The notes under the pieces are model-generated. The model was not told the origin of the DNA. It did not search any database and saw only the letters and a list, made by a program, of their open reading frames with translations. DNA of 42,002 nucleotides from Gemmatimonadota bacterium. Its GTDB lineage: Bacteria; Gemmatimonadota; Gemmatimonadetes; Gemmatimonadales; GWC2-71-9. Within the stretch, counting starts at the first letter, position 1. Each line of letters starts with the position of its first letter. A program made the position numbers and the translations under genes. Where the stretch lies: contig JBLNGI010000116.1 of assembly GCA_050264615.1 (NCBI GenBank), positions 1 to 42,002 of the forward strand. The letters run 5' to 3'. Shown piece by piece: positions 15,217 to 37,890 of this stretch.

Positions 15217-15279
15217 GAGGAAGACTGCGGGAGGCTGGCAACGGAGGCTCTTGGACTTTAGTGCACGCGAGTCTCGAAG

Positions 15280-15352
<73 letters not shown>

Positions 15353-15557
15353 GGATTATGCAGCAGAAGAACTTAGCGGGCTCGTGGGGACGATGGCAGT
15401 GGGAATGTTTGCCATTGGCTCCTCTGGCGGGGCACGAGGCGCGCAGCGTACTCGCAGTCCAGTGCGCGCCCAGCTGCAAAGGGCCTCTGCGAGGGTAGAT
15501 CCGTCTCTTCCGGTTCTGTCTGCCACCAGTTTCGCCACCAGCGGATCGACGCCACAC

Positions 15558-16487
15558 TCAGCCCTCGATCGAAGCACACATCACGTGAGCATGCCCCCCG
15601 GGCACCACCAACACGGACAACCCTCTCGACTCGATGCTCACCTCGAACTCGGCTCCCAATACGACTTCGCCGTCGATCTGCACGGGCCCGTCGGCCTTGA
15701 ACCGCGCGCGCCGCCAGCGGCGCCAGCGCGGGTCATCGTCCCGGCCGGGCCGCGCCGTCCGCAGGCCGTGGCGCAGCGTGCGCCAGTAGGCCGGGGCGGA
15801 GAGACACGCCACGGCCTCGGCCGCGCCGTCGGTCGCGTCAGCATCAGGCCACATGAGCCACCCGAAGCCATAGTACGGCAGGTTGTAGAGGCCGGCGTTG
15901 TACACCTGCTCCGCTGGCTCCAGGAGAGGCTCCCCGTCAAGCATTACGCCAATGCCGCTCCACGACCGCATCGCAACGCCGAGCAGGGCGGGTACGACAC
16001 CGAGCCACCGGCGCCACGCCGGCCGGCGCGGAACGGCGGCCAGCAGGCGCGACTCGAACCCGGCGCTGATGGATACCAGGGCCAAGGAAAGCTCGGGGTG
16101 TGTGGTGGTCATCACGTCGATCCGTCGCGGTGTGCCAGTCTCGAGGGCCTGCAAAGCCCCCGCGAGGGTCCCGAGTCCGAAGGCATGGCCGAACGCGTTG
16201 CCGGTGCCCAGCGGAAGTATGGCGAGCGGACGGTCGGCCTTTCCCGCCGCGCGAAGGGCTCGGGCGAGCAGGTTGACCGTGCCGTCGCCGCCCGCGGCGA
16301 CGGGGATCTCGTCGTACGCGAGACCCTCCACGATCTCACCAGCTTCCTCGAGCGAGCGGACGACGGCGGTCCGGGCGCGCGCGCGCAGCCGGGGCGCGGG
16401 AGCCAGCGCCGCGCGTAGGCGGGGGAGGACGCGCCCGCCACCCGCGCCCGGGGTCACGAGAAAGACGACGCGCCGCTCCGCGCTCAC
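15558..16487 (-). CDS. Diacylglycerol/sphingosine/ceramide kinase family protein (DAGK_cat)
   Basis: PGAGGG, AAGGDGTVN, ILPLGTGNAF, YYGFG and QIDGE motifs; GTGA overlap with the upstream stop. Confidence 0.88.
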   Translation of the reverse strand: MSAERRVVFLVTPGAGGGRVLPRLRAALAPAPRLRARARTAVVRSLEEAGEIVEGLAYDEIPVAAGGDGTVNLLARALRAAGKADRPLAILPLGTGNAFGHAFGLGTLAGALQALETGTPRRIDVMTTTHPELSLALVSISAGFESRLLAAVPRRPAWRRWLGVVPALLGVAMRSWSGIGVMLDGEPLLEPAEQVYNAGLYNLPYYGFGWLMWPDADATDGAAEAVACLSAPAYWRTLRHGLRTARPGRDDDPRWRRWRRARFKADGPVQIDGEVVLGAEFEVSIESRGLSVLVVPGGHAHVMCASIEG

Positions 16488-17728
16488 TCCCCCGCCGCAC
16501 CCGGACGGAAGGTGACCTTGATGGCACCGCTACCACGGCGGTGCACCAGAGCGGTGAACGCGGCCGCATAGGCGTCGAGCGGGAGGGTGTGCGTGATCAG
16601 CTCGCGCAACACCAACGCCCCGGCCTCCAGGCGCGGCACGAGCAGTGTGTACGGATGCACCCACTCCCCCTCCCACGGCACCGGTCCATACGCGTAGATC
16701 CCCCGCACGGAGATCTCCCGGTACCACAGCGGCGTGGGATCCACGCCGTCGAGGGTGGGCGGCGCGGCCACCATCACCACCATGCCGAGCGGGCGCACCG
16801 CCTGCAGCGCCTGCGTGAGGGAGGATCGCGTTCCGGCCGCGTCGATCACGCGGTCGTACATCCCGCGGAACACGTATCCGTAGCCGACGACGTGCACCGC
16901 GCGCATCCCGCGCGCGGCTGCCCACTCACGGAACGCAGAAGCTCCTCGCACCATGGTGACCGACACCCCGTGGCGCTCGGCCCAGGCGCGCTGCGACTCG
17001 TACCGGACGAGCAGCTCACACACGCCGGGACGCGCGAGGGCGCGGTGGAGGTACGCAATCAACAGCCCGATGGTGCCGCCACCGATGACGAGCGTGCGTT
17101 CCCGCTCGGGTGCCTCGCTGCGGAGCAGGGCGGCGAGCGCCGTCGCGGCGGGATCGAGAAGCACCGCGTCCTCGTCCGCGACACGCGGGGAGAGCGGCCA
17201 GAGCTGCGAGCGGTGAGCGAGGCAGGTGTGGGACCAGCCGCCGCCGGTCTCGGCATTGAAACCGATCCCGATTCCGCGGCCCGGCCACTCGTCCCCGCGC
17301 CGCTCGCACAGCCCCTCCCACCCCCCCCCGCATGGCCCGCACGGCTGGGCGACGCCCCGCGCCCGGCAGCCGAGCACGGACCAGACGGCGCAGCGCGTCC
17401 CTGGCTGGAGTGGCGAGTCCGCGACGGCGGGCGCCAGGCCCTCAGCCTCGACCGCGGCGACCAATTCGTGGCCCGGCACAAACGGATATGACGCCTCGGG
17501 CTCGAGGTACAGTGAGTCCCGTCCGGTCACCAGGCTCACGTCGGTGCCGCAGATCCCCGAAAGCCGAACGCGCAGCCCCACCCAGCCCGATCGCGTCGGG
17601 ATGGGTGGGGGACGACACACGCGATGGAGGGGCGCGAGTCGCGCGGACCAGAGCGGACGCGCCCACTGATGCGTCAGTCGCGTCGCCAGGTAGCGCGCCA
17701 CGTCGTGGCGGAACTCGAGCGCCTCCAC
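16484..17728 (-). CDS. Zinc-binding medium-chain dehydrogenase/reductase
   Basis: SGICGTD, PGHE, four-Cys structural Zn site (CRARGVAQPCGPC...C), GGGTIG Rossmann motif. GTG start lies 2 nt after the upstream stop; 414 aa. Confidence 0.9.
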   Translation of the reverse strand: MEALEFRHDVARYLATRLTHQWARPLWSARLAPLHRVCRPPPIPTRSGWVGLRVRLSGICGTDVSLVTGRDSLYLEPEASYPFVPGHELVAAVEAEGLAPAVADSPLQPGTRCAVWSVLGCRARGVAQPCGPCGGGWEGLCERRGDEWPGRGIGIGFNAETGGGWSHTCLAHRSQLWPLSPRVADEDAVLLDPAATALAALLRSEAPERERTLVIGGGTIGLLIAYLHRALARPGVCELLVRYESQRAWAERHGVSVTMVRGASAFREWAAARGMRAVHVVGYGYVFRGMYDRVIDAAGTRSSLTQALQAVRPLGMVVMVAAPPTLDGVDPTPLWYREISVRGIYAYGPVPWEGEWVHPYTLLVPRLEAGALVLRELITHTLPLDAYAAAFTALVHRRGSGAIKVTFRPGAAGE

Positions 17729-17730
17729 CG

Positions 17731-18858
17731 TCAGCCGGTGAGCCGCCGCTCGTACAGTCGGAACGTCTTGACGCACGGGCCGCCGCACGCAGCGATCACC
17801 GCCAGGACCTTCCGGTTGTCCGCCTGAACCAGCGAGAGCTCGGCGTGTGCGATCCCCAGCCGGCGGGCGGCGTCCACCATCGCGGCGGCGATCACGACGG
17901 CCACGCCCCGCGCGCGATGCTCGGGAAGCACGCCAAGTAGCATGAACCGCGCGCTGCGGATCCGATGGACACCGCGCATGAGGCGCAGCCAGCCGAAGGG
18001 CCACAGCCGCCCGTCCAGGGGCGCGAGCAGCTCGTTGATGTCGGGAAGGGAGAGCCCGAACCCCACTGCCCGCCCGCCGCGCTCCGCAAAGAGGACGAGC
18101 TCGGGGCGGTAGAACGCGCGAAAATCGTTGGCGCGTCCCCGATACTCGTCCCACGTGAGCGGGACGAACCCCCACAGCTCGGCAAACGACGCGTTGTACA
18201 GCTCGAACAGCAGCCGGTTCTCGGCATCCCACCGGCCTGGATCGGCCGGGCGCACGCTCACACCATCCCGCGCCGACAGGCGCTGCAGGCGCGCCACGAC
18301 CGGCGCCAAACTCATGTCCGGCGTCCACGTGTGGGCATGGTAGTCGAGCCGGCGGGCATACCCGGCGGCCTCCACGAGGCGGGGATAGTACGGTGCGTTG
18401 TAGGGGGACAGTACCATCGGCCGCGAGTTGAACCCCTCCACCAAGAGGCCGACCTCGTCGTTCGTCGTCAGGTTGATCGGTCCCAGCACGTGTCGGACCC
18501 CCTGGGAACCCAGGTCCGCTTCGGCCGCTGCGAGGAGGGCTACGGCGGCCGCCGCGTCGTCGACGCACTCGAAGAACCCGAAGAACCCTGCCTCGCGCCC
18601 CCACCGCGCCGCGAAGGCCGGATCCACCACGCTGGCGACGCGCCCCACATCGCGGCCATCCCGCCGCGCGAGGAACCGCCGTACGCGGCGAGCACGCAGC
18701 GAGGCATTGTGCCGGGGCGACCAGCGCCGCCGCTCGATGCTGCGGAGCGGCGCCACCCAGTACGGGTCGCCCTCATAGAGCGCGTAGGGCAGCGCCCAGA
18801 ACGCGCGCTGCTCGGCACGCGACGCAACCGGGACGATCTCGATCGTTTCCCGCTGCAT
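17731..18858 (-). CDS. GNAT-fold acyltransferase, bacterial ceramide synthase (bCerS)/YghO-like
   Basis: F..LP..LY..DPYWV.PL, VGRVA, GFFGFFEC.DD, GP.N.TTNDEVGLLVEGF..PM...YN.PYY..L.E.AGY, WGFVP.T, PDIN and G.LWPFGW match my recollection of this family. Confidence 0.8.
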   Translation of the reverse strand: MQRETIEIVPVASRAEQRAFWALPYALYEGDPYWVAPLRSIERRRWSPRHNASLRARRVRRFLARRDGRDVGRVASVVDPAFAARWGREAGFFGFFECVDDAAAAVALLAAAEADLGSQGVRHVLGPINLTTNDEVGLLVEGFNSRPMVLSPYNAPYYPRLVEAAGYARRLDYHAHTWTPDMSLAPVVARLQRLSARDGVSVRPADPGRWDAENRLLFELYNASFAELWGFVPLTWDEYRGRANDFRAFYRPELVLFAERGGRAVGFGLSLPDINELLAPLDGRLWPFGWLRLMRGVHRIRSARFMLLGVLPEHRARGVAVVIAAAMVDAARRLGIAHAELSLVQADNRKVLAVIAACGGPCVKTFRLYERRLTG

Positions 18859-18866
18859 ATGACACC

Positions 18867-18945
18867 ACGATGCTCGCTCGGCCGCGACGCGTCAAACGTC
18901 CGGCTTGACGATCTCTTGACACGTCGAAGGGAAACTGTCTATTGA
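18867..18945. promoter_or_regulatory. Back-to-back promoters of the island cluster
   Basis: Minus strand TTGACG (18895-18890)-N17-CATCGT. Plus strand TTGACA (18916-18921)-N18-TATTGA. Inverted repeat CGTCAA-N9-TTGACG at 18890-18910. Confidence 0.45.
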
Positions 18946-18963
18946 CCAAATGCGGGGGCGCTC

Positions 18964-20283
18964 GTGAAGATCCTGCTCGTCAGCCCGACAGCAATGGACA
19001 GCCGGGGCCGACCCATCAAGCAGCGCACGGTGCACCTCCCCGCCCTCACGCTTCCCATGCTCGCCGCGGTCACCCCACCCGACGCTGACCTCCGTCTCTG
19101 CTGCGAAACGGCCGAGCAGATTCCCTTCGACGAGCCGTGGGACCTCGTGGGCCTCACCGGGATGGGATCCGGAATCGTACGGGCGTGGCAGATCGCCGAT
19201 GAATTCAAGCGGCGGGGCCGAACGGTGGTGATTGGGGGGATCGCCGCGACCCTCGGCGACCCCGAATGGTCCCTGGCCCACGCCGACGCGGTGGTCTTGG
19301 GCGAGGCGGAAGAAGTCTGGCCCACGGTCGTGCAGGACGCCGCTGCCGGCCGGCTGCAATCAGTGTATCGGATGCAGCGCGAACCGCCGATCGACCAGCT
19401 GCCCCTCCCCCGCTACGACCTGTTGAACGCGGCGGTCTACGGCGCGTGGCGGCCGGTGCAGGCGACCCGCGGGTGCCCCTTCACGTGCACCTTCTGCTCC
19501 ATCACCGCGTTCTTCCAACAACACTACCGCAAGCGGCCGGTCGACCAGGTGGTCCGCGACGTGCGCGCCGCGAAGCGGCAGGGCACGCGCTACATCGCCT
19601 TCATCGACGACAACATTGGGGTCGACTGGGAGTACTGCGCCAAACTCTGGACGGCGTTGATCCCCGAGCGGATCATCTGGATGAGCCAGTGCAGTCTCCA
19701 TATCGCCGATCGCGCGGACATGCTGGAGCTCGCCCACCGGAGCGGCTGCCGGCTTCTGTCGTTCGGCATCGAGTCCACGAACGCCGAGAGCCTGGCGGGA
19801 ATCGACAAGGAGTGGAACCGGCCCGGCCGCTATCGCGACGCCGTGCGGCGCATCCGCGCGCACGGGATCGACGTGTCCACGGAGATGATCATCGGCTTGG
19901 ACGGTGACAACGGCTCGGTGTTTCAGCGAACCTACGACTTCCTTATGGACAACGCGATCTCGGTGCCGCGGGTCCACATCCTGACGCCGATCCCGGGGAC
20001 GCCGCTCTTCACTCAGCTCAAGGACGAGGGCCGGATCGTGAGCGAAGAGTTTGACCGCTACACCGGCGGGCATGTGGTCTTCCGACCAAAGCACCTCGAC
20101 GCGGCCGAGCTCGAGGCCGGTTACTGGAAGCTGTACGAGCGCCTGTTCTCCTGGCCCGCCATTGTGCGGCGCGTCGCGCCCAATCCGGCGTCGCTCAGGG
20201 GCTACATGCGGGCCATTGTGCTCGGCGTGAACCTGCACTACCGCCGCCACATCCACAATCGTATCTGCCCCGGGATCGTATAG
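18964..20283 (+). CDS. B12-binding domain radical SAM protein 1
   Basis: N-terminal cobalamin-binding-like domain (VVIGGIAAT..P, VV.GEAE), RGCPFTCTFC, FIDDN, FGIES, IIGLDGD, LTPIPGT motifs. Confidence 0.92.
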   Translation: MKILLVSPTAMDSRGRPIKQRTVHLPALTLPMLAAVTPPDADLRLCCETAEQIPFDEPWDLVGLTGMGSGIVRAWQIADEFKRRGRTVVIGGIAATLGDPEWSLAHADAVVLGEAEEVWPTVVQDAAAGRLQSVYRMQREPPIDQLPLPRYDLLNAAVYGAWRPVQATRGCPFTCTFCSITAFFQQHYRKRPVDQVVRDVRAAKRQGTRYIAFIDDNIGVDWEYCAKLWTALIPERIIWMSQCSLHIADRADMLELAHRSGCRLLSFGIESTNAESLAGIDKEWNRPGRYRDAVRRIRAHGIDVSTEMIIGLDGDNGSVFQRTYDFLMDNAISVPRVHILTPIPGTPLFTQLKDEGRIVSEEFDRYTGGHVVFRPKHLDAAELEAGYWKLYERLFSWPAIVRRVAPNPASLRGYMRAIVLGVNLHYRRHIHNRICPGIV

Positions 20284-20301
20284 CTCCGCCCAGGAGGCTC
20301 C

Positions 20302-21783
20302 ATGCGCGTCCTTTTGATACGTCCTCCCGTTCCGCCGCACACGATCGGTCTCAAGCACATCATGATCTGCGAGCCGCTGGAGCTCGAGTACGTGGCGGCC
20401 GGGCTGGACGGACACGACGTCCAGATCATGGACATGATCGTCGAAGGGCACCTCGAGCGGCGCCTCCGGCAATTCGCGCCGGACGTCGTGGGGACGAGCT
20501 GCTACATCACCGGCGTGAACGAGGTCAAGAAGATCTGCCGCAGCGTGAAGCGGTGGAACCCGAACTGCTGGACGGTGGTGGGCGGGGTCCAAGCATCGAG
20601 GGTGCCCGAGGACTTCGCCGACACCGCGATCGACGTTGTCGTCCGCGGCGACGGGACGACGGCGATGCCCGCCCTGCTCGACGCCTTCGCGAACGGGCAC
20701 TCCCTCGTGGACCTACCGAATCTCGCGCTCCCCGACGGGGACCGCATGGTCCTAACTGCCGACCGCCCCTACATGCCGAAGCCCGATCAGCTCCCGTTCC
20801 CACGCCGCGATCTCGTCCGCCACCTCCAGCACCGGTACTACTACCTGTTTCACCAGCCCGTGGCGACGATGAAGACCACGTGGGGGTGCTGGTACAAGTG
20901 CAACTTCTGCTACACCTGGCGCATCACCGATGGACTCCCGTACTCCCGCAGTCCCGAGTCCATCGTGGACGAGCTCGAGCAGATCGAAGCCGACGACGTC
21001 TACATTGTAGACGACATCTTCCTCATCAACCGGAACCGGCTCGCGCGCATCGCCGAGCTGCTTCGCGCGCGCAACATCCGCAAGAACTATCTCGTCTACG
21101 CCCGCGCCGACTTCCTCGCCGAGAACGAGGACGTGATCGCCGAGTGGGCGGGGCTCGGGCTCAAGGCCGTGTTCGTCGGGCTCGAGGCCGCGACGGACGC
21201 GGAGCTCGATTCGATGAACAAGGAGTGCAGCGTGGACTACAACCGGCGGGCCATCGCGGTGCTGCGCCGGCAACGGGTCGATACGTACGGATCGCTCATC
21301 ACGCAGTCCGACTACGTCGAAGCCGACTGGGCGCGACTCAAGCGGTTCATCGACGAAACCAAGCTCTACTACTTGAACATCTCCCCCCTGACGCCCATGC
21401 CGGGTACGCTCATCTGGGACCGGTACAAGGACCAGACGACGGTGAGTCGCGTGGCCCACGGGCTGTGGGACTTGTCGCATATGCTGCTGCCTACCCGCAT
21501 GCCCCTCAAGCAGTACTATCGCTCGCTCCTGGGGGTGTACGCCCACGCGTGTATCAACCCCCGCCGCGCCGCTGCGCTGTCGCTGCGCACCGCGCCGCCG
21601 ATCTGGTCGTGGAAATTCCTGCGGTTGTGGTACGGCGCGCTGCAGATCGCCCGACAGTTCTTCACGGCGCATCGACACCACACGCCGGCGGAGGTCGCGC
21701 GGGCCTCGGACACGGGCCCCGAGGTACCGGGGCTCATCCCGCGCTGGAAGGCGCGCCGACCGGCGCCGGTGGCGGCGGACTGA
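20302..21783 (+). CDS. B12-binding domain radical SAM protein 2
   Basis: EPLELEYVAA, VVGGVQAS..P, WGCWYKCNFC, IVDDIF, VFVGLE, LTPMPGT motifs; SD AGGAGG. Confidence 0.92.
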   Translation: MRVLLIRPPVPPHTIGLKHIMICEPLELEYVAAGLDGHDVQIMDMIVEGHLERRLRQFAPDVVGTSCYITGVNEVKKICRSVKRWNPNCWTVVGGVQASRVPEDFADTAIDVVVRGDGTTAMPALLDAFANGHSLVDLPNLALPDGDRMVLTADRPYMPKPDQLPFPRRDLVRHLQHRYYYLFHQPVATMKTTWGCWYKCNFCYTWRITDGLPYSRSPESIVDELEQIEADDVYIVDDIFLINRNRLARIAELLRARNIRKNYLVYARADFLAENEDVIAEWAGLGLKAVFVGLEAATDAELDSMNKECSVDYNRRAIAVLRRQRVDTYGSLITQSDYVEADWARLKRFIDETKLYYLNISPLTPMPGTLIWDRYKDQTTVSRVAHGLWDLSHMLLPTRMPLKQYYRSLLGVYAHACINPRRAAALSLRTAPPIWSWKFLRLWYGALQIARQFFTAHRHHTPAEVARASDTGPEVPGLIPRWKARRPAPVAAD

Positions 21784-21790
21784 GGCTCCG

Positions 21791-23056
21791 ATGGCTGCCC
21801 CGACTGCGGTCACCGGCACGCCGTACGACCCGTTCGACGGCTACTTCGCCCACGACGGCCATCCGGCCGCGGCCCCCGGCAGTCTCCTCGACCTCGCCGC
21901 GGCACGCCGGTGGTTCGAGATCCTGCGCCGAGGGTCCGAGGAGGACCTCTACACCTACCAGCAACCGCTCGAGGGACGCTCGGGTCCGCGCGTCTCGGTC
22001 AACGCGCGCCCGACCCTGATGCTCGCGAGCTACGACTACCTCGGCCTCCTCGGGTGTCCGGCCGTGGAGGAGGCCGCGGTGGCCGCCGTGCGGGCCTACG
22101 GCACCGGGACCGGGGGCGTCCGGATGCTCACCGGCACCACGGCCCTGCATCACGAGCTCGAGCGCGAGATCGCGGCGTTCAAGGGCGTGGCAGCGGCGCT
22201 CACCTACGGCGCCGGTTACCTCGCGAATCTCTCGGCCATCGGGGCGCTGGTCGGCCCCCGGGACCGCGTCATCATGGACGCCCGCGCCCATCGGAGTCTC
22301 CACGATGCCTGCGCGCTGGCGCGCGTGCCGATCCGGACCTTCCGTCACAACGACATGGTCACGCTGCGCCAGGAACTCGCCCGGGAAGCCGCCGGGCAGC
22401 GGACGCTGATCGTGGTGGACGGCCTCTACTCCATGGACGGCGACGTCTGCCCGCTCGCGGAGATCGTCGCGCTCAAGCGGGAGTTTGCGGCGTTCCTGCT
22501 GGTGGACGAGGCCCACGCCCTCGGCGTGCTCGGCGCGAGCGGCCGCGGCGTGCACGAGCATTTCGGCGTCCCCGCCGACGCCGTGGACATCTGGACCGGA
22601 TCACTGTCGAAGGCCATCCCGGCGAACGGCGGTTTCCTCGCCGGCTCCCGCGAGCTGGTGATCTACCTCCAGCACGTCACCGCCCCGTTCTGGTTCTCAG
22701 CGGCGCTGTGCCCCGCGGCGGTCGGTGCCGCGCTCGAAGCGCTACGTGTGCTGCAACGCGAGCCCGCGCGCTTGGACCGCCTCCGCCGCAACGCCGCGCG
22801 GCTGCGCGACGGGCTCCGCAGCCGCGGCTACGACACCGGTGCCTCAACGGGACCGATCATCCCGGTGATGGTCGGAACCAACGACGCGGCCTGGCGACTC
22901 GCGCGGCGGCTGTTCGACCACGGGGTGCTGGCGCCCGCGGTCGTGTACCCGGCGGTGCCGCTGGACGCGGCCCGCCTGCGGCTCTGTGGCACGGCGGCGC
23001 TGTCCGACGCCGACATCGACGAAGCCCTCGCGGCCTTCCAGGACGCCCGCGCATGA
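21791..23056 (+). CDS. PLP-dependent alpha-oxoamine synthase (serine palmitoyltransferase-like)
   Basis: SYDYLGL, GYLAN, H(R)SL, FRHND, DGLYSMDGD, VDEAHALG, GSLSK (PLP lysine), FSAAL, YPAVP...RLR. Family call is firm; substrate is inferred from context. Confidence 0.88.
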   Translation: MAAPTAVTGTPYDPFDGYFAHDGHPAAAPGSLLDLAAARRWFEILRRGSEEDLYTYQQPLEGRSGPRVSVNARPTLMLASYDYLGLLGCPAVEEAAVAAVRAYGTGTGGVRMLTGTTALHHELEREIAAFKGVAAALTYGAGYLANLSAIGALVGPRDRVIMDARAHRSLHDACALARVPIRTFRHNDMVTLRQELAREAAGQRTLIVVDGLYSMDGDVCPLAEIVALKREFAAFLLVDEAHALGVLGASGRGVHEHFGVPADAVDIWTGSLSKAIPANGGFLAGSRELVIYLQHVTAPFWFSAALCPAAVGAALEALRVLQREPARLDRLRRNAARLRDGLRSRGYDTGASTGPIIPVMVGTNDAAWRLARRLFDHGVLAPAVVYPAVPLDAARLRLCGTAALSDADIDEALAAFQDARA

Positions 23057-24222
23057 CAGCGGTGAGCGCGGTCCGGGCGCGGCGCGGGACGCGGCCGTAC
23101 AGCGTGCGCGCGTTCACCGACATCGCGGACGTGGATCCCGCGGCTTGGGACGCGATCATCGATCCCGACGACCTCCAAGCCACCCACCGGTTCGTGAGTG
23201 TGTGCCAGCGCTCGGCAGTCGAGGGCGCCGCATACCGGCACGTCATGGTGCATTGCGGCGCACGCCTCGCCGCCATCGCGAGCTTCTCGCGAATGGACGT
23301 CAAGGTCGATTTGCTCGCTACCGGGGTCGCGCGCGCAAGCATCCGCTGGATCCGGCGCCGGCACCCGTCGTTCCTCGTAGTGCCCGTGGCGTTCTGCGGT
23401 CTGCCGGTGTCGTTTGGGCAGTCCTGCCTGCGCCTCGCGCCCGGGGTGGACCGGGCGGCGGTGCTCCCGCTCCTCGCCCGCGAGCTCGACGCGTTCGGAG
23501 CGGACACGGGGGCGCGGTTGCTCTGCTTCAAGGAGTACGGGCCGGCGGAGGGCCCGGCGCTCGCCCCGCTCCTGGCCGCGGGTTACTTCCGCGCGCCGAG
23601 CCTCCCCTCGTGCCGCCTCGCGATCCGGTGGCGCACGTTCGACGAGTACCTCGCCGCGATGCGCGCGGGCTATCGCCGTCAGGTGCGGGCGGGTCTGCGG
23701 GTGGGGGCGGCGCAAGGACTCGAGTGCCGCGTCGTGGCGGACTTCGGCCCGGACTGCCGCCGCATCTTCCGCCTCTACGAGCAGGTGATGGACCGGGCGG
23801 AGGTTCAGCTCGAGCGCTTGAATCTCGCGTTCTTCGAAGAGCTGAACGGGCGACTGGGCGCGCAGTCGGCGGCGGTCCTGCTCGAGCGGCACGGCGCGCT
23901 GGCGGCCGCCGCCGTGCTGCTGTACTCGCCGCACGTCGTCACCTTCCTTCTCGCGGGCATCGACAGCGCGCAGAACCGTCCGTGCTGGGCCTACCCGAAT
24001 CTCGTCACCGCGGTCGTGCGGGAGGCGATACGACGCGGCGCGACGGCGCTGGAGATGGGGCAGACGTCGTACGACCTTAAGCTGCGCCTCGGCGCCGCGA
24101 CGAGCAGTCGCGAGATCTACATCAGGTGCCCCGGCCGCGTCCGGCACGCGTTGCTCCGCGCCGCGGCCCCGGCGCTGTTCCCCGTCGTTCACCCGGCGGC
24201 TCGGCGGGTGTACCGCGCATGA
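23053..24222 (+). CDS. GNAT family (FemAB-like/Acetyltransf_6) acyltransferase
   Basis: W.TFDEYLAAMRAGYRRQ, LYEQV...LE.LN..FF and EMGQTSY..K.RLGA patterns; ATGA overlaps at both ends; 389 aa. Confidence 0.8.
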   Translation: MTAVSAVRARRGTRPYSVRAFTDIADVDPAAWDAIIDPDDLQATHRFVSVCQRSAVEGAAYRHVMVHCGARLAAIASFSRMDVKVDLLATGVARASIRWIRRRHPSFLVVPVAFCGLPVSFGQSCLRLAPGVDRAAVLPLLARELDAFGADTGARLLCFKEYGPAEGPALAPLLAAGYFRAPSLPSCRLAIRWRTFDEYLAAMRAGYRRQVRAGLRVGAAQGLECRVVADFGPDCRRIFRLYEQVMDRAEVQLERLNLAFFEELNGRLGAQSAAVLLERHGALAAAAVLLYSPHVVTFLLAGIDSAQNRPCWAYPNLVTAVVREAIRRGATALEMGQTSYDLKLRLGAATSSREIYIRCPGRVRHALLRAAAPALFPVVHPAARRVYRA

Positions 24223-25196
24223 CCGGCGCGTGGCGGCCGGCGCTCGCGCGCTATCAGGGCGGCGACTGGCGCATCGGCGCCCGCCAGATCGCGACGACGG
24301 GCGCGCTCTTCGTCCTCGCCTGGTACGCCGCGTACCGGAGCCTCGCGATCTCCTACTGGCTGACGCTCGCCCTCGCGCTCCCGACGGCTGGTGTGCTGGT
24401 ACGGCTGTTCACCATTCAGCATGACTGCGGCCACGGATCTTTCCTGCCGAGTCCGACGTGGAACGACTGGATCGGCCGGGCGCTCGGCGTGGTCACGCTG
24501 ACGCCCTACCGGTACTGGCGGCGGTTCCACGCCCTGCATCACGCCACCTCTGGGAAGCTCGAGCGGCGCGGCTTTTACGACATCATCACCCTCACCGTGC
24601 GGGAGTACCGCGCGCTCCCCTGGTGGAAGCGCCTTGCCTACCGCGTGTATCGCGACCCCGTGTTCCTCTTCGCCATCGCGCCGACCGTGCTTTTCGTGGT
24701 CCTACACCGCTTTCCATTCCTGGCGCCCCGCAGCTGGCGCGCCGAGCGCCGGAGCATCCTGGGGACCGACGTCGCGCTCGCGGCGGTGATAGGCCTGCTG
24801 GCGGCGACGATCGGCCTGCGCGCGGTCCTCCTGATCCAGGCGCCAGTGACCGTGATCGCGTCGGGCGTGGGGATGTGGCTGTTCTACGTGCAACACCAGT
24901 TCGAAGACGCGTACTGGGAACCGGCCGGGCGCTGGGACTTCACGCACGCTTCGCTCGTGGGGTCCTCGTATTACGCGCTCCCCGCGTGGTTGCATTGGTT
25001 CACCGGACACATCGGATTGCACCACATCCATCACCTCAACACCCGCATCCCGAATTACCGGCTCCAGGCTTGCTTCAACGAGAATCCCGATCTGCCGCCG
25101 GCGGCCCGCCTCACGTTACGCGACAGCTTCCACTGCGTGCGCCTCAAGCTCTGGGACGAGGAGCGCAGGAAGCTCGTGCCGATCCCGAATGCCTGA
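24219..25196 (+). CDS. Membrane fatty acid/lipid desaturase (Des-like)
   Basis: His boxes HDCGH, HALHH and HHIHH, plus WLFYVQHQFE and RIPNYRL; 325 aa. Confidence 0.93.
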   Translation: MTGAWRPALARYQGGDWRIGARQIATTGALFVLAWYAAYRSLAISYWLTLALALPTAGVLVRLFTIQHDCGHGSFLPSPTWNDWIGRALGVVTLTPYRYWRRFHALHHATSGKLERRGFYDIITLTVREYRALPWWKRLAYRVYRDPVFLFAIAPTVLFVVLHRFPFLAPRSWRAERRSILGTDVALAAVIGLLAATIGLRAVLLIQAPVTVIASGVGMWLFYVQHQFEDAYWEPAGRWDFTHASLVGSSYYALPAWLHWFTGHIGLHHIHHLNTRIPNYRLQACFNENPDLPPAARLTLRDSFHCVRLKLWDEERRKLVPIPNA

Positions 25197-27061
25197 TGTC
25201 GCATGCTTCGCTCGAGCTCCTGCTTGTCGTAGGCTGGTTCGGCCAGTCGGCCAACTGGGTGTGGGCGCTCGCCCGCGCGGGACGCCGCGCGGCGACGCCG
25301 CTCGAGTGGGCCCCCGAGTTGTTGTTGCGGGCGGCCATGGCGGCGCTCGTCGTGTGGGCGTTGGTCGGCACCGCCGGTACACGGGTTCCGCTGCCCGACG
25401 GAGTGATGGCGGCGTGCGTGGTGCTGTTCCTCACGGGCCACGCGGTCGCGGTGCTCGGTCGCGTCCGCCTCGGCGGCGCGTGGGGCATCGGCACCCGCCC
25501 GCGGGCTGACCTCGACGCGCCGGTCCGCAGCGGCATCTACCGGCTCGTCGCGCACCCGATCTACCTCGGAACAACCACCGCAGTCGTGGCGCAGCTGGCG
25601 GTGCTGCAGAACCTTCCGTCGCTCCTGCTTGTGGCGGGCGCCGCCGCGGTGAATCCTTGGAAAATCGCGCGAGAGCGGCGCTTGCTCCGGCGGGCCGGAC
25701 TGCCGACAGCCCCGGGGCCGCCGGGTCACATGCTCCTCGGCCACCTGCCGGCGTTCCGCCAGGAGCCGCTGGGTTTCCTCCTCCGCGCCGTCCGGGATTG
25801 GGGCGACGTGGTCGCCCTGCGCATCGGGCGCCAGCCCGCCTACCTCCTCTGGCGGCCGGAGCACGTGCAGCAGGTGCTCCAGACCAACCAGCGGATCTAT
25901 TCCAAGCGCGTTGACCCGCTCAAGCGGCTCAGCGAAGTGCTCGGTCGCGGGCTGGTCACGAGCACGGGCGATCTGTGGCGGCGCCAGCGGCGCCTCGTGC
26001 AACCGGCATTCCATCCAGAAGCGCTGGACGCGCTGGGGCCGGTCATCACGAGAGCAATCGCCGAACTGGTGGACGGCTGGCGCCCGCTCGCCCGGGCGGG
26101 CGCGGTCCTGGACGTCCACCACGAGATGATGCGCCTGACATTCTGTATCGTGGGCGAAACGCTGTTCGGGGCGGATCTGCGTCAGCAGGCCGATTCCGTG
26201 CGCGGGGCGCTCGCGGTGGTGCAGCAGCAAACCAATGAGCGGCTCGACACCCTGGTGCCGCTTCCTCTCTGGGTGCCCACCCGCCGGAATCGCGCCTTCC
26301 ACAACGCGCTGGCTACCCTTGACCGCGTCGTCGGAGGCGTGATCGATGCGCGCACCGCCGCAGGCAACGGCGCTGGCCGCGCGGACCTGCTCGCCACCCT
26401 CATGGCGGCGCGCGATGAGCATACCGGTCGCCCGATAGGGCGGCGACAGCTGCGGGACGAGATCGTCACGCTACTTCTTGCCGGCCACGAAAACACCGGG
26501 AACGCGCTGACGTGGCTGTGGTATCTCATCGCCCGGCACCCGCCGGTCGCGGATCGCGTCGGGGAAGAGCTCGGGCGGGTCCTACACGGCCGCCCACCCG
26601 CATGGGCCGATCTTCCGGCGCTCCCCTACGCAAGAATGGTGATCGAAGAGACGCTGCGACTGTATCCCACGTCGTGGCTCATGCTGCGCCGTGCCGAGGA
26701 GCCGGACGAGATCGGCGGGTTCGCGATCGAGCGCGGCGCGATCATCGTGATCAGTCCTTACCTCACTCACCGGCACCCCGAGCATTGGTCCGATCCCGAG
26801 GTGTTCGACCCGGAGCGTTTCGAGGAGCAGCGGTCGTCCGCGCGCCACCGCTTTGCTTACTTCCCGTTCGGGGGAGGTCCACGGAAATGTGTCGGCAGTG
26901 GATTCGCGGCGGGCGAGCTGCAGCTCGTGCTCGCGGCGGTCGCCCAACACTATTGCTTCGAGCTCGAAGCCGGGCAGGTGGCGCATCCACTCCCGGTGGT
27001 GTCGCTCCCGCCCCGCGGCGGCCTGCCGCTCCGCATGCGACTCCGTTCCGGGCGCGACTGA
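25196..27061 (+). CDS. ICMT/PEMT-like membrane domain fused to cytochrome P450
   Basis: First ~165 aa are hydrophobic with LG.AW...SGIYRLVAHPIYLG...KIARERRLL. P450 follows with APGPPG, W.RQRR..QPAFH, AGHENT, EETLRLYP, FDPERF and FGGGPRKCVG. TGATG overlap; 621 aa. Confidence 0.88.
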   Translation: MSHASLELLLVVGWFGQSANWVWALARAGRRAATPLEWAPELLLRAAMAALVVWALVGTAGTRVPLPDGVMAACVVLFLTGHAVAVLGRVRLGGAWGIGTRPRADLDAPVRSGIYRLVAHPIYLGTTTAVVAQLAVLQNLPSLLLVAGAAAVNPWKIARERRLLRRAGLPTAPGPPGHMLLGHLPAFRQEPLGFLLRAVRDWGDVVALRIGRQPAYLLWRPEHVQQVLQTNQRIYSKRVDPLKRLSEVLGRGLVTSTGDLWRRQRRLVQPAFHPEALDALGPVITRAIAELVDGWRPLARAGAVLDVHHEMMRLTFCIVGETLFGADLRQQADSVRGALAVVQQQTNERLDTLVPLPLWVPTRRNRAFHNALATLDRVVGGVIDARTAAGNGAGRADLLATLMAARDEHTGRPIGRRQLRDEIVTLLLAGHENTGNALTWLWYLIARHPPVADRVGEELGRVLHGRPPAWADLPALPYARMVIEETLRLYPTSWLMLRRAEEPDEIGGFAIERGAIIVISPYLTHRHPEHWSDPEVFDPERFEEQRSSARHRFAYFPFGGGPRKCVGSGFAAGELQLVLAAVAQHYCFELEAGQVAHPLPVVSLPPRGGLPLRMRLRSGRD

Positions 27062-27064
27062 GCC

Positions 27065-28399
27065 ATGTTCGCGCAAGCGGTCCTCGCGCCAGGCCCTCGG
27101 CCGCACCCGCTGTTCGGGCACGTCACCGCATTCCGGAAGGACCCCTTCGGGTTCCTGACGACCGCTATTCGCGACTACGGCGACATAGTGGGGCTGCGCC
27201 TGGGACCACGGCCAGCGCTGTTCCTCCGCCATCCGGATCACATTCAAGTCCTGTTGCAGGCCCACCGAGACAATTACGTCAAGCAGCCGCTGTTCCGCGT
27301 CGTATTCGGCGACGGCGTCGCTACTGCAAACGGTGCCGCCTGGCACCGCCAGCGGCGGCTCCTGACACCGTGGTTCCACCCGCGGCGGGTCAGCGGCGCG
27401 ATCCCGGTTCTGCACGACGTGCTCAACGACCTAGTACGGCGCTGGCGTCTGCTCGCCGATTCGGCACAGCCTGTCGAGCTCCTCGTGGAGATGAGACGGC
27501 TCGCCTTGCTCTTCGTCGCCCGCACGCTCCTCGGAGCCGAGCTCGGCAGCGCGGCCGACGGCATCCGGAGAGCCGCCGACCTGCTTCAGCGTGGAATGGC
27601 CGAGCGGCTTTTCCGCCTGGTGCGCCTGCCGCTCTGGGTGCCGACCCCGGGGAATCGGACGTTCCTCGGCGCGGTGAGGGCTCTCGACCAGTTGGCCTAC
27701 GGCCTCATAGCCGAGCGCCGTACCGCTCGTGGCACCTCCGACGATCTCTTTCGCGCACTGCTGGAGGCGGACGGCACACCCGCCTCCGACCGCGCGGTGC
27801 GCGACCAAGTCCTCACGCTCCTGTTCGCCGCGTACGAAAACACCGGCAATGCGCTGACCTGGCTGTGCTACGTCTTGGCACGGCACAGAGAGGTCGAGGA
27901 GCGTGTTCACGACGAGCTGCTGGCGACGTGCGATGGCGGGCTGCCGAACGGGGAGGCGCTGGCGCAGCTGCGATATACGCGCATGGTGGTGGACGAGACG
28001 CTGCGCCTCTACCCCACGGGATGGATCGTCCGCGTCAGCCGGGCGGAGGACATGATCGGCGCATACCGGGTCCCCGCGAGCACCGTCGTTTTCGTGAGTC
28101 CATACTTGACGCACCGCCATCCCCAGTTCTGGCCGAACCCGGAGCGCTTCGATCCCGCGCGCTTCGCGGCCGGCACCGCACCGTTTCACGCATTCTCGTA
28201 TTTGCCGTTCGGCGAGGGTCCGCGGCAGTGCCCCGGCGGCGACTACGCGGTGGTGGAGTCGCTCCTCACCGTCGCCGCCGTCGTCGGGCATTTCCGCCTG
28301 AGACTCGTGGCCGGTCAAAGTCTCGAGCCCGACCCCTTGTTCTCCGTCGCACCGCGCCATGGGCTCAAGGTGATCCTGCAGTCGCGCGGGAACCATTAA
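27065..28399 (+). CDS. Cytochrome P450
   Basis: AAYENT I-helix, DETLRLYP, FDPARF, FGEGPRQCPG heme motif; clear paralog of the upstream P450 domain. Confidence 0.95.
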   Translation: MFAQAVLAPGPRPHPLFGHVTAFRKDPFGFLTTAIRDYGDIVGLRLGPRPALFLRHPDHIQVLLQAHRDNYVKQPLFRVVFGDGVATANGAAWHRQRRLLTPWFHPRRVSGAIPVLHDVLNDLVRRWRLLADSAQPVELLVEMRRLALLFVARTLLGAELGSAADGIRRAADLLQRGMAERLFRLVRLPLWVPTPGNRTFLGAVRALDQLAYGLIAERRTARGTSDDLFRALLEADGTPASDRAVRDQVLTLLFAAYENTGNALTWLCYVLARHREVEERVHDELLATCDGGLPNGEALAQLRYTRMVVDETLRLYPTGWIVRVSRAEDMIGAYRVPASTVVFVSPYLTHRHPQFWPNPERFDPARFAAGTAPFHAFSYLPFGEGPRQCPGGDYAVVESLLTVAAVVGHFRLRLVAGQSLEPDPLFSVAPRHGLKVILQSRGNH

Positions 28400-28406
28400 C
28401 GAACCG

Positions 28407-30644
28407 ATGGCCGGGGCCGCACGACCATCGGGTGGGCACCCGAGCAGCTGGGCTGTCAGATACCGTGTCTGGGTGCTTGGCGCTTGGACGGTCACGGGGC
28501 TCGCTCTCGCCCCGCGGGCGGCGCGAGTTGAACGGTTCCTGGCGGTCGCCCCACCCGAGGGAGGCGAAGCGGCCGCGGTCGACGCAGCCCTGGCCAGTCG
28601 ATTCCGCACGCCCTTCGTCAATTCCGTGATTCTGGTCGTGGGCGGCGGTCCGGGTCCGATCGAGCCCGCCGGCCGTGCCCTCCTCGATTCGATCCGGGAT
28701 TCCGTCGCGCGCGTCCCCGGAGTGCTCCGCGTGCGCTCATATGAGAGTCCGCGCGACACATTGTTCTTCCACCGGGGCAACGCCGCCTCATTCATCCTTG
28801 TCGGACTCGATGACCGGGGACGCACGCCGGAGGATGCGGTGCCGGAGCTACGCCGCGCGACGTCGGCTCTCCTTCCCGCGCTGGCGCAGCAATTCCCAGA
28901 TCTTACCCTGCGCTGGACGGGACGAGCGGCTCTGAATGCCGACCTTCGAGAGGCCAGCGGAGCGGACGTGCGTGCCGCCGAGAAACGGGCGCTGCCGCTG
29001 ACTCTGCTCGTGCTCGTGGCCGCGCTGGGGACGGTCTTCGCCGCGCTCTTGCCTGTCGGGTGTGGTGTGCTCGTCATCACCGTCGCGCTGGGTCTGGCCA
29101 CGATCGTCGGCGCCCACTGGCCGCTAGCGACACTCGCCCAGAGCTTCATCGCGATGATAGGCCTCGGACTGGGGATCGATTACGCGCTGCTGGTCGTGAG
29201 TCGGTTTCGCGAGTCGTTGGCGGCAGGCCTGGCAGCGGATGCCGCGGCGTGTGAGGCCGGCCGCGCCGCCGGCAGGACGATCATCTTGTCCGGGGCCGTT
29301 GTCGCGGTAGGATTCGCGGCGCTCCTCGCGATTCCCCACTCCGAGGCCCGGGCCGCTGCCGTGGGGGGGCTCTTGTCTGCGGCGACCGCGGTACTCGTTT
29401 CGGTTTCGCTCCTGCCCGCATTGCTCTCCTGGTTAGGGGCACGAATTGACCGCGGCCGGCTATGGCCCGGGGAATGGGCGCTGGGTGCCGGCGCAGCTTG
29501 GCGCCGCTGGGGCCGACACGTGGTCGCCCGTCCCATCGCCGTGCTCGTCGCAGCCGGTCTGCCCATCGTTGTCCTGGCCTGGCAGGGACATCGGCTGCGG
29601 CCCGGCCTGCCCCGTGGCGGGGACTGGCTCCCGCCGGAGATCGAGTCCACGAGAGCGCTCCGGGAGTTAGAGGCGATGGGGCGCGGAGGGGTGGTCCAGA
29701 CCCTTCACATCCTGATGCAGCTCCCTCCGGGACATGACGTCCTGACCCACGACGGATGGAGCGCCGTTCGCCGCATGCGCCGGCGCCTGGTGGCCGACGA
29801 GCGGATCGCCGCCGTGCAGTCGTTCACTTCGTTCGCCGCCGAGCGGCCGCCGTCCCGCCTTGCCCTGTTCATGGCGCCACGGGCGACGTGGGAGCCATTC
29901 CTCACCGAGGACCGGCGCTCCGTGTTGTTGCACGCGATCCCTGCCGAGTCCGTCGATGACGTGGCGCTGGTCGCGCTCGTGAGACGATTACGCGCGTTCG
30001 ACGCGGAGCAGTTCACGGGGGTGGCCGGCACGCGCATCCTCGTCGGGGGTCTCCCCGCCGCGCGGGCCGACTACGTCGATGCCGTAGAGGGCCGCTTCGG
30101 CACGGTCGCGACGCTGCTCCTGGCGGGTACATTCGTGGCGCTGCTCATTGGCCTCCGGTCGGTCCTGGTGCCACTCAAAGCGATCGCCTTGAACCTCCTG
30201 GCGGTAGGCTGCGGCTTCGGCGTCGTCGTTCTCGCGTTTCAGGATGGCTGGGGGTTGGGCATCTTCGGCCTACACCAGCGGGTGGACGCCGTCTTCCTGA
30301 TCCTTCCCACGATCGTGTTCTGCACCGTGTTCGGACTGAGCATGGATTACGAGGTGTTCCTCGTCACACGCGTGGCGGAAGCGGCGCGACAGGGGGCAGA
30401 CGACCAGACGGCGGTAGTCGAGGGACTCGCGAACACTGGCCCGGTCATCACGAGTGCCGCGGCCATCATGGTCGCCGTGTTCGGCGCATTCATGCTCGGT
30501 GATTTTCTGTTCGTCAAAATGCTGGGACTGGCGCTCGCTGTCGCCGTATTCATGGACGCCACGCTGGTCCGGAGCGCCATCGGCCCGGCGTTGCTCACGC
30601 TGGCCGGTCGGTGGAACTGGTGGCCCGGCAGAACGCCACCGTGA
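28407..30644 (+). CDS. MMPL family (RND) lipid transporter
   Basis: MIGLGLGIDYALLVVSRFRE, GRTIILSG, RSVLVPLKA..LNLL, FGLSMDYEVFL.TR and TG.VITSAA.IM motifs; 745 aa. Confidence 0.95.
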   Translation: MAGAARPSGGHPSSWAVRYRVWVLGAWTVTGLALAPRAARVERFLAVAPPEGGEAAAVDAALASRFRTPFVNSVILVVGGGPGPIEPAGRALLDSIRDSVARVPGVLRVRSYESPRDTLFFHRGNAASFILVGLDDRGRTPEDAVPELRRATSALLPALAQQFPDLTLRWTGRAALNADLREASGADVRAAEKRALPLTLLVLVAALGTVFAALLPVGCGVLVITVALGLATIVGAHWPLATLAQSFIAMIGLGLGIDYALLVVSRFRESLAAGLAADAAACEAGRAAGRTIILSGAVVAVGFAALLAIPHSEARAAAVGGLLSAATAVLVSVSLLPALLSWLGARIDRGRLWPGEWALGAGAAWRRWGRHVVARPIAVLVAAGLPIVVLAWQGHRLRPGLPRGGDWLPPEIESTRALRELEAMGRGGVVQTLHILMQLPPGHDVLTHDGWSAVRRMRRRLVADERIAAVQSFTSFAAERPPSRLALFMAPRATWEPFLTEDRRSVLLHAIPAESVDDVALVALVRRLRAFDAEQFTGVAGTRILVGGLPAARADYVDAVEGRFGTVATLLLAGTFVALLIGLRSVLVPLKAIALNLLAVGCGFGVVVLAFQDGWGLGIFGLHQRVDAVFLILPTIVFCTVFGLSMDYEVFLVTRVAEAARQGADDQTAVVEGLANTGPVITSAAAIMVAVFGAFMLGDFLFVKMLGLALAVAVFMDATLVRSAIGPALLTLAGRWNWWPGRTPP

Positions 30645-30731
30645 GCGAAGCAGCCCACAGCTTCACCAACCCCTGCCCAGCGGGGCGCGGGGGTTGCACA
30701 AGGCTCGGCCGCTGGCGAGGCTGTGCTCCCT

Positions 30732-30775
30732 GGAGAGGTGGCAGAGTGGCTGAAGGCGGCGGTTTGCGAAGCCGT
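30732..30775 (+). pseudogene. Decayed 5' half of a tRNA-Ser(GCT)-like gene
   Basis: GGAGAGG TG GCAGAGTGGCTGAAGGC G GCGGT TTGCGAA GCCGT has the acceptor strand, D arm and anticodon arm typical of tRNA-Ser. No T arm or 3' acceptor strand follows. Upstream TTGCAC-N17-GAGGCT. Confidence 0.65.
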
Positions 30776-30875
30776 GCCAGGACATCGGGGTAGGTCGGTT
30801 GTTTGCCGCAATGTTTGCCGGTCAGTGCTGGCCGACGTAGTCGAATGGGGTACGTGAGTGCCAGTGCCGGAGCAC

Positions 30876-30910
30876 AAGACGAGGGGCCCGCACAGGACCC
30901 CTCGTCTTTT
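30876..30910. terminator. Hairpin/intrinsic terminator abutting the right att repeat
   Basis: Perfect 11-bp stem AAGACGAGGGG (30876-30886)/CCCCTCGTCTT (30898-30908) running into TTTT. Confidence 0.7.
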
Positions 30911-30944
30911 CAGTCCGCTGCTCTACCAACTGAGCTACCTGGCC
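30907..30944 (-). repeat. att direct repeat, right copy (displaced 5' half of tRNA-Phe)
   Basis: Identical to 15315-15352. Preceded on the minus strand by a -10-like TAGATT (30964-30959), the probable native tRNA promoter. Confidence 0.95.
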
Positions 30945-30980
30945 CAAAGTGGAAGCGGAATCTAGAAACGTGAGGGGGGT

Positions 30981-37362: not shown

Positions 37363-37419
37363 CAACGCCAGCCGTGAGAGTTTTCAAACCCGATCGTTCT
37401 CATCGAAAGGAGGAAACCT

Positions 37420-37890
37420 ATGTTCCTGACGACTCGCAACTCGCAGAGAGACCCGGCCACGGCCGAGTTCGTCAACGTCGGTCACCGGATCAGCCGTTTG
37501 CTCAACGATGCGTTGGGCGGGCTGGATTGGCAGTACCGGGACAGCGTCAGCGCGTCCTGGGTGCCCCCTGTCGACATCTTCGAAGAGAAGGACCTGATCC
37601 GCATCATGGCCGAAGTGCCGGGCGTGCGGCCGCAGGACGTGAAGATCTCGCTGGAGGGCAATGTTCTCACCGTCCATGGACAGAAGCAGCAAGTCGCGGA
37701 ACAGCGCACCGAGCGCGTGCATCGCTACGAACGGACCTACGGCGAGTTCGAGCGCACGTTCAGCCTTCCCGCTTCGGTCGATGCCAACGCGATCTCGGCA
37801 TCGTACGAGCATGGCATCCTGACGATCACGCTTCCGAAGGTCGAGCAGGCGAAACCGCGGGAGATTCAAGTGGCAGTGACCCAGAAATAA
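37420..37890 (+). CDS. Hsp20/alpha-crystallin small heat shock protein
   Basis: [39 protein letters not shown]; SD AGGAGG. Confidence 0.96.

Follow-up and report, generated by a model that had tools for sequence, protein, structure and literature searches.

Introduction

What is made by an eleven-gene island that sits beside tRNA-Phe in a soil bacterium whose genome already holds a canonical ceramide-type operon? The island (15353-30906, 15.6 kb) lies on contig JBLNGI010000116.1 of the assembly GCA_050264615.1 (Gemmatimonadota bacterium; Gemmatimonadales, GWC2-71-9). The window, by which we mean the whole stretch of DNA that was analysed, is this complete contig of 42,002 nucleotides (nt), numbered C116 in a soil metagenome-assembled genome (MAG) of 3.55 Mb, 329 contigs and 88% completeness. 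The contig is considered correctly binned because the uracil phosphoribosyltransferase (upp) gene near the island is 88-92% identical to its counterparts in five of the five congeners searched; the named database relatives of the upp protein are Gemmatimonadales. In what follows G000 is the source MAG, other G numbers are related genomes, L numbers are loci and C numbers are contigs, while the island genes are lettered A to K. We favour, with somewhat more belief than doubt, the reading that the island encodes a second, specialised and horizontally acquired pathway whose product would be a sphingolipid-like lipid of the N-acylated 2-amino-3-hydroxy type.

The genes of bacterial sphingolipid synthesis have been defined recently, and surveys count producers by homology to Spt, bCerS and CerR. 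A first-pass annotation of this DNA knew of no described sphingolipid pathway with tailoring and export of the kind found here, and our literature search likewise found no account in which radical SAM or FemAB-like proteins accompany a sphingolipid or alpha-oxoamine synthase (AOS) system, although supplementary tables may already list homologues from Gemmatimonadota or Acidobacteriota. What appears to be new is the set of paralogues and tailoring enzymes added to ceramide-type synthesis in bacteria, on an unusual island.

Island paralogues and the canonical operon of the host

The canonical genes lie on another contig of G000. On C234 (L089; 1249-5448, minus strand) an operon encodes an Spt-like AOS, a bCerS/YghO-like GNAT, a CerR-like reductase of the NAD-epimerase fold and a PAP2_3 protein, so that the CerR-like gene is off the island. 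The C234 AOS matches the Bacteroidota Spt model at 535 bits, bioF at 398 and Kbl at 387. Markers were counted in 24 genomes of the same genus (completeness 59-100%, the unpublished G009 among them): the C234-type canonical GNAT is present in 22 of these at 65-86% identity, and gene G, used as the marker of the island, in none; G was found in one of 16 genomes of the same order.

The product of A aligns over its full length with E. coli YghO (32% identity over 376 residues, E 6e-66); the C234 GNAT is 34% identical to YghO and 38% identical to A. In the E. coli record, yghO stands beside genes for an acyl-AMP ligase, an NAD-epimerase, an acyl carrier protein (ACP) and an AOS, and the legend to Fig. 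9 of PMC9386255 groups yghO (ECD_02850) with Caulobacter CC_1154 as an N-acyltransferase of dihydroceramide synthesis. Because of the full-length homology to YghO and the pairing of yghO with CC_1154, A is, on homology, a genuine member of the bCerS/YghO family. A tree of all GNAT matches with at least 80% coverage (31 rows) gathered the cluster-linked A-type GNATs into a clade of 23 rows (support 100/100), apart from YghO, the C234 GNAT and the second GNAT of L010/L131. The earlier description of this gene as bCerS-like can be kept as far as the family is concerned, but by its position in the tree A is a paralogous subclade and not the canonical bCerS, which is encoded elsewhere in the genome. 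No NCBIfam model was found for A, a single-sequence PDB search returned one weak GNAT match only (E 0.0027), and no paper on YghO function was among the literature matches listed.

The AOS encoded by F also stands apart. For its phylogeny, 154 AOS matches were brought down to 41 by dereplication (at 62% identity for rows labelled tdh or none, at 88% for all others), and eight tdh-linked sequences and four references (E. coli BioF, Kbl and Spt-like; P. distasonis Spt-like) completed a tree of 53 rows. F falls in a window-type AOS clade that takes up 30 of the 53 rows (100/99), outside the Spt clade of the E. coli Spt-like, C234 and P. distasonis sequences (98/92). G000 holds three AOS genes (F, C234 and C276), and the third groups with E. 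coli Kbl at 100/99, joined by BioF; the tdh-linked Kbl sequences form two more clades. Since the clade of F is separate and the backbone between the AOS clades is unresolved in this tree, F is neither BioF/Kbl nor demonstrably Spt. The top curated model is bioF (357 bits, cut-off 426); the Spt models reach 228-325 bits (cut-offs 500-670) and a CqsA-type model 194 bits. The first-pass annotation had set the AOS beside Spt of the Caulobacter ceramide pathway; F indeed does not group with BioF or Kbl, and it is not inside the Spt clade either.

Conservation of the cluster core

A window-type AOS, at 53% identity or more, was found at 53 loci in scans of genome and metagenome contigs. A number of metagenome loci are duplicates of genome loci (L006 = L124; L010 = L131 = L147), and synteny counts were restricted to loci with enough flank. 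A FemAB-like gene lies directly downstream of the AOS in 35 of 40 loci. The two radical SAM genes are found near it in 23 of 31 (rSAM1) and 24 of 35 loci (rSAM2), and an A-type GNAT is upstream in 18 of 27 and downstream instead in four more. The remaining genes are less constant: the zinc-dependent dehydrogenase (Zn-ADH) is near the AOS in 8/22 loci, the diacylglycerol-kinase-type gene (DAGK) in 4/16, the MMPL gene in 3/20, the desaturase in 2/33 and the PEMT-P450 in 1/25. The multi-phylum core is an AOS and a FemAB-like GNAT, usually together with two B12 radical SAM enzymes and a bCerS-like GNAT. By record label the hosts are Gemmatimonadota, Acidobacteriota, Planctomycetota (Gemmataceae), Bacteroidota and Proteobacteria, which interleave in the AOS tree. 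Co-occurrence elsewhere had been proposed as a check on the cluster, and this conserved core synteny bears it out.

The extended order C-B-A/D-E-F-G-H-I-(J)-K, in which the slash marks the divergent spacer, was seen only in the four closest metagenome contigs (L114, L115, L116 and L122), whose AOS are 83-91% identical to F; L116 is without J. The tailoring that had been called heavy is thus present as genes, but the desaturase, the PEMT-P450, the P450 and the MMPL protein are confined to these four close relatives. Sister clusters carry other additions, namely a short-chain dehydrogenase/reductase (SDR) adjoining A in L007, L015 and L018, a CDP-alcohol phosphatidyltransferase in L010 and L014, and an MMPL protein, a third B12 radical SAM enzyme and a sulfotransferase in L016 and L017; at L010/L131 a second GNAT, of canonical type, lies 4 kb from the cluster. 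In G026, a complete genome of the same order, an A-type GNAT gene is divergent from rSAM1-rSAM2-FemAB-like (L199; C1:359463-364645) with no AOS between them. G026 has the canonical operon and no window-type AOS, its three AOS genes sharing only 37-42% identity with F, and carries an MMPL gene some 3 kb past the A-type GNAT.

Two further observations were made at related or comparable loci. In a Pyrinomonadaceae MAG the gene that follows the cluster (L008:12670-15546) encodes an LRR-Roc-COR-TIR protein, an architecture of defence-like or signalling-like type. Another non-canonical AOS locus of lipid-like kind, with a different gene set, is found in a Thioclava plasmid record (L198, 8285-18207); its AOS is accompanied by an ACP, a phosphopantetheinyl transferase, a ketosynthase-like protein, an AMP-binding protein and a DUF1295 membrane protein.

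The cluster is also met in soil DNA of other origin. Sequence words of the island occur in part in 17 of the 20 soil metagenome runs listed, and to at least half in four, across 11 studies. A DNA contig from a second study reaches from within the tRNA gene, by way of the left arm, into the cluster. A third study supplied a soil metatranscriptome in which D and E are spanned by a single contig (18961-21757, three differences) and F, H, I/J and K are represented in part by smaller contigs.

A FemAB-like protein coupled to the AOS

G matches Pfam FemAB_like (29.8 bits, cut-off 27) and Acetyltransf_6 (30.7 bits). The ESM Atlas gave the same Pfam families only, NCBIfam no more than a 17-bit match to a PEP-CTERM FemAB model, and a single-sequence PDB search with G no match. 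Natural fusions of this domain occur: five proteins of 802-865 residues join an AOS to a FemAB-like/Acetyltransf_6 domain, and one of 1245 residues joins a FemAB-like domain to a class III aminotransferase (proteins P0241-P0246). These fusions suggest that G acts on the amine made by a pyridoxal phosphate-dependent enzyme. With its PF13480/PF04339 protein directly after the AOS in most loci, and with the five fusions, the pair recalls the "BioF2-like" pairs of an AOS with an Acetyltransf_6/FemAB-like protein, but it differs from them in lying inside a lipid-type cluster with radical SAM enzymes. The architecture of Mycobacterium BioF2 is of this kind, and we know of no function for these pairs.

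Gene models and tailoring enzymes

All 11 island genes are real and intact by third-position G+C frame plots and Pfam/NCBIfam matches, and they form two divergent operons, three genes on the minus and eight on the plus strand (Table 1); on the genes, the operons and the listed domains the first-pass annotation was accurate. Successive genes overlap by start and stop codons or are separated by 0-18 nt. A naive list of open reading frames (ORFs) needs correction for B, G and I, whose true starts are internal to longer open frames, and the start of H is most likely the ATG at 24219. The catalytic signatures are intact wherever checked: D and E keep CX3CX2C, I and J the heme Cys motif, H its three His boxes and C its GGDG. 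Both H and K are integral membrane proteins, as is the N-terminal part of I. Scans of the island for sigma-70 and terminator consensus sequences did no better than on shuffled sequence, and no sigma-70 consensus was found in the divergent spacer.

Table 1. Features of the island and of its two borders, in window coordinates.
Feature	Position (nt)	Strand	Assignment and details
tRNA-Phe (GAA)	15279-15352	minus	Intact (ARAGORN); its 5' 38 nt (15315-15352) are the left direct repeat
Left arm	15353-15417		Kept next to tRNA-Phe in G011, G013 and G017; one TGTTTGCC at 15406
C	15558-16487	minus	DAGK_cat/YegS-type lipid kinase; PF00781, E 5.8e-15; GGDG at residue 66
B	16484-~17728	minus	Zn-dependent medium-chain dehydrogenase (ADH_N + ADH_zinc_N); start approximate
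A	17731-18858	minus	GNAT of the YghO/CC_1154 (bCerS) family; cluster-specific subclade
Divergent spacer	18859-18963		Intergenic, between the operons; 105 nt
D	18964-20283	plus	B12-binding radical SAM enzyme with DUF4070; CPFTCTFC at residue 171
E	20302-21783	plus	B12-binding radical SAM enzyme, HpnR-like; motif at residue 196
F	21791-23056	plus	AOS; distinct clade
G	23053-24222	plus	FemAB_like/Acetyltransf_6 GNAT; start overlaps the AOS stop
H	24219-25196	plus	Membrane fatty-acid desaturase; three His boxes
I	25196-27061	plus	N-terminal PEMT/ICMT-like membrane domain (weak) fused to a cytochrome P450
J	27065-28399	plus	Cytochrome P450
K	28407-30644	plus	MMPL-family RND transporter; 745 aa, 11 hydrophobic segments
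Right arm	30800-30906		Two TGTTTGCC (30800, 30812); hairpin with 9-bp stem at 30878-30906
Right direct repeat	30907-30944	minus	Remnant 5' half of tRNA-Phe, followed by native-type tRNA upstream region

D and E each combine a PF02310 B12-binding domain with a PF04055 radical SAM core and so have the architecture of class B cobalamin radical SAM enzymes, the PF02310 match in D being weak (25.4 bits, below the cut-off of 32.1). With the class B lipid methylases typified by HpnR they share the B12-binding domain, the radical SAM core and the CX3CX2C motif; HpnR is also the closest curated NCBIfam model for E, but at 239 bits against a cut-off of 650, and the substrate here would be an acyclic amino lipid. 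H has a DesA-like match of 341 bits (cut-off 500). The methyltransferase-like domain noted earlier is represented by a PEMT match in I that barely clears its threshold (25.3 bits, cut-off 25), the ICMT match staying below its own, so that this assignment is kept only in a weak form. K carries an MMPL domain (222 bits) at the end of a lipid operon and in this, and in its hydrophobic segments, resembles the MmpL exporters of Actinobacteria and HpnN; it scores far below the cut-offs for MmpL3 and HpnN (57 bits against 752 for the latter), and its host is a diderm of the Gemmatimonadales. To our knowledge, no sphingolipid cargo has been assigned to the MMPL family.

Proposed pathway and alternatives

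Our reading builds on gene content, motifs, the family of A, the clades of A and F, synteny, borders and the patchy distribution as observed, and the chemistry attached to them is predicted. F would form a 2-amino-3-keto long-chain base by condensing a fatty acyl thioester with an amino acid (L-serine in the simplest case); the amine of this base would be capped by G, translationally coupled to the AOS here and fused to it elsewhere, and/or by A. B may then reduce the 3-keto group in the role of CerR, where sister clusters have an SDR, and C may phosphorylate a free hydroxyl as CpgB does on ceramide; CpgB is presented in PMC10331486 as a GGDG lipid kinase with ceramide as substrate. D and E, the distinguishing feature of the family, would C-methylate unactivated carbons or bring about some other radical change at C-C bonds. 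In this lineage only, H would add a double bond and the P450s I and J hydroxyls, and K would move the product from the inner membrane. Such a scheme shares with the ceramide pathway of Spt, bCerS, CerR and CpgB (Caulobacter, the E. coli BL21-type yghO cluster, Bacteroidales) an AOS, a YghO-family GNAT, a keto-reductase function and a GGDG kinase. It departs from that pathway in that the island AOS and GNAT have clades of their own, the reductase is a Zn-ADH, AcpR/AasR are absent, and a FemAB-like GNAT and a pair of B12 radical SAM enzymes come in addition, with a canonical operon coexisting in the genome. A pairing of AOS and kinase as on the island is seen in a P. distasonis record (L196, 4822-7179), where an Spt-like gene divergently adjoins a gene of the diacylglycerol kinase family.

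A number of points weigh against this scheme. F is outside the Spt clade, and no one of the BioF, Kbl and Spt models stands out in its scores, each of which stays below cut-off; its amino-acid and acyl substrates in the scheme are therefore candidates. The island reductase B is a Zn-ADH and not of the CerR-type NAD epimerase/dehydratase fold, C is only 21% identical to the DAGK of P. distasonis, and no ACP or acyl-activating gene is among the 11 island genes. A single amine has two candidate N-acyltransferases, A and G, and a profile of G searched against PDB sequences gave non-significant FemX matches (E 0.1-0.7). The arrangement in G026 implies that the module can exist without an AOS of its own. 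The metatranscriptome contigs give a hint that the island is transcribed, while contigs from an RNA library can stem from contaminating DNA. Finally, the lipid itself is a prediction from the genes, as are every chemical step, the substrate and the product.

Other products were weighed. An accessory island with a patchy distribution over several phyla, P450s of the kind met in secondary metabolism and a dedicated pump would also suit a secreted metabolite or signal, an amino-ketone or amino-alcohol lipid of sphingofungin, myriocin or CAI-1 type exported by the MMPL protein. We regard this as unlikely given that the island and its sister clusters encode enzymes of membrane-lipid head groups (the DAGK-type kinase, the CDP-alcohol phosphatidyltransferase, the sulfotransferase) and that the CqsA-type model scores far lower on F than the other models do. 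Quite unlikely, in our view, is that the island remodels the ceramide of the host by methylation, oxidation, phosphorylation and export, with F and G supplying some other part of the molecule, for instance a head group or a further unit in amide linkage. The canonical operon of G000 and its GNAT in nearly all congeners would provide the substrate, G026 has A, D, E and G with that operon and no window-type AOS, and L010/L131 keep a canonical-type GNAT close by; yet nearly every other cluster has the AOS, the anchor of the synteny, and the duplication of AOS, bCerS-like GNAT and reductase within the cluster reads as a parallel pathway.

That the genes serve the modification and export of hopanoids or another polycyclic lipid, with E as an HpnR-like methylase and K as an HpnN-like transporter, draws on the best curated match of E and the weak one of K; with both scores so far under their cut-offs, no squalene-hopene cyclase domain found in G000 (at its 88% completeness) and no part for an AOS and GNATs in hopanoid synthesis, it is very improbable. 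Scarcely credible is ordinary biotin or threonine metabolism, with F as BioF or Kbl beside unrelated genes. Close homologues of F are labelled "glycine C-acetyltransferase" or "8-amino-7-oxononanoate synthase" and bioF is its top model, but F lies in a clade apart from E. coli BioF and Kbl and from tdh-linked Kbl, it is the C276 AOS that groups with Kbl, no bio genes or tdh are adjacent, and the radical SAM and GNAT genes keep their place beside the AOS in different phyla.

The preferred reading, a second route to a sphingolipid-like lipid, has a broader form that we put forward tentatively, as possible rather than probable: an unrecognised, horizontally spreading family of sphingolipid-like lipids with cobalamin radical SAM chemistry (C-methylation or cross-linking), built by Spt and bCerS paralogues and an AOS-coupled FemAB-like transferase, and carried here on a recombinase-less cassette that enters tRNA-Phe at its 5' half and restores the gene with its own promoter arm.

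Borders and acquisition of the island

The direct repeats that bound the island are identical at 38 of 38 nt and occur nowhere else in the genome, where chance would give none. These tRNA repeats and the absence of marker G from the congeners agree with the earlier claim of an acquired island, as does the G+C content (0.696 for the island, 0.66 for the flanks) with tRNA-targeted islands in general. Copies of TGTTTGCC stand at 15406, 30800 and 30812, where 0.4 per strand would be expected over the whole window. In the region upstream of the tRNA, G002 and G016 have a native type of sequence, which the window and G013 have to the right of the remnant copy; an "element arm" adjoins the intact tRNA in the window, G011, G013 and G017. 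Over 146 nt, the right arm with its repeat shares 90% identity with the right end of the island in G013. Part of the right arm turns up again in G017 as the border of a 3.3-kb island with a Ser/Thr protein kinase and an RR-HD response regulator protein. The genus thus has a family of tRNA-Phe islands (G013, L111/L112; G017, L113; G011, L098) with conserved arms and differing cargo, that of G013 being Usp, a P-type ATPase and histidine kinases.

The picture is that of a cassette that would integrate into the 5' half of tRNA-Phe and restore the gene. No recombinase was found among the 11 island genes or the 14 ORFs scanned at the island ends in G011, G013 and G017, and the five tyrosine recombinase (PF00589) matches in G000 are all on other contigs; the island is probably mobilised in trans and resembles a cis-mobilisable cassette. 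The word "mobile" in the first-pass annotation is accordingly half sustained, by the att-like repeats and the patchy distribution, and half not, with no integrase on the island. Like tRNA-targeted islands, the island has a tRNA segment repeated directly at either end, arms that are conserved, cargo that varies among relatives and a slightly higher G+C, and it was not found in most congeners searched. Here, in distinction, the 5' half is duplicated, the intact tRNA keeps an element-type upstream arm, and an integrase is missing from the island. The island end sequences and the tRNA repeat were sought in the other cluster-bearing loci, the close relatives L114-L116 and L122 among them, and none were found. 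No contig in four sequencing runs joins 15352 to 30945, which, with contigs only, is uninformative on an empty site.

Comparison of the flanks by tblastx and at the DNA level describes a mosaic region. The left-flank protein (13339-15309) had no match in five congeners, and the right-flank protein (32177-33289) has only 39-42% matches in congeners. The former is a membrane GDPD phosphodiesterase; its real start is probably further downstream because its longest ORF overlaps tRNA-Phe by 31 nt. Its 583-aa neighbour (11591-13342) belongs to no Pfam family and was not found in the five congeners searched. Just right of the island, the gene at 30978-31988 is 84% identical in amino acids to G011:C1:201886-202896; the G011 copy is on the other side of a BNR/sortilin gene, and in the window an HSP20 gene (37384-37890) takes the place. 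The left 15 kb of the window map about 47 kb from tRNA-Phe in G011.

Implications for bacterial lipids

Across five phyla, as judged by record labels, radical SAM and FemAB-like enzymes accompany paralogous enzymes of the AOS and bCerS-like kinds; therefore, homology screens may mislabel or miss a class of envelope lipids of soil bacteria. The pairing and fusion of AOS and FemAB-like proteins offers a testable handle on a widespread gene pair, and the island borders point to an unusual integration system at the 5' half of a tRNA gene with variable cargo. If the radical SAM enzymes methylate the lipid, its products could matter as environmental biomarkers.

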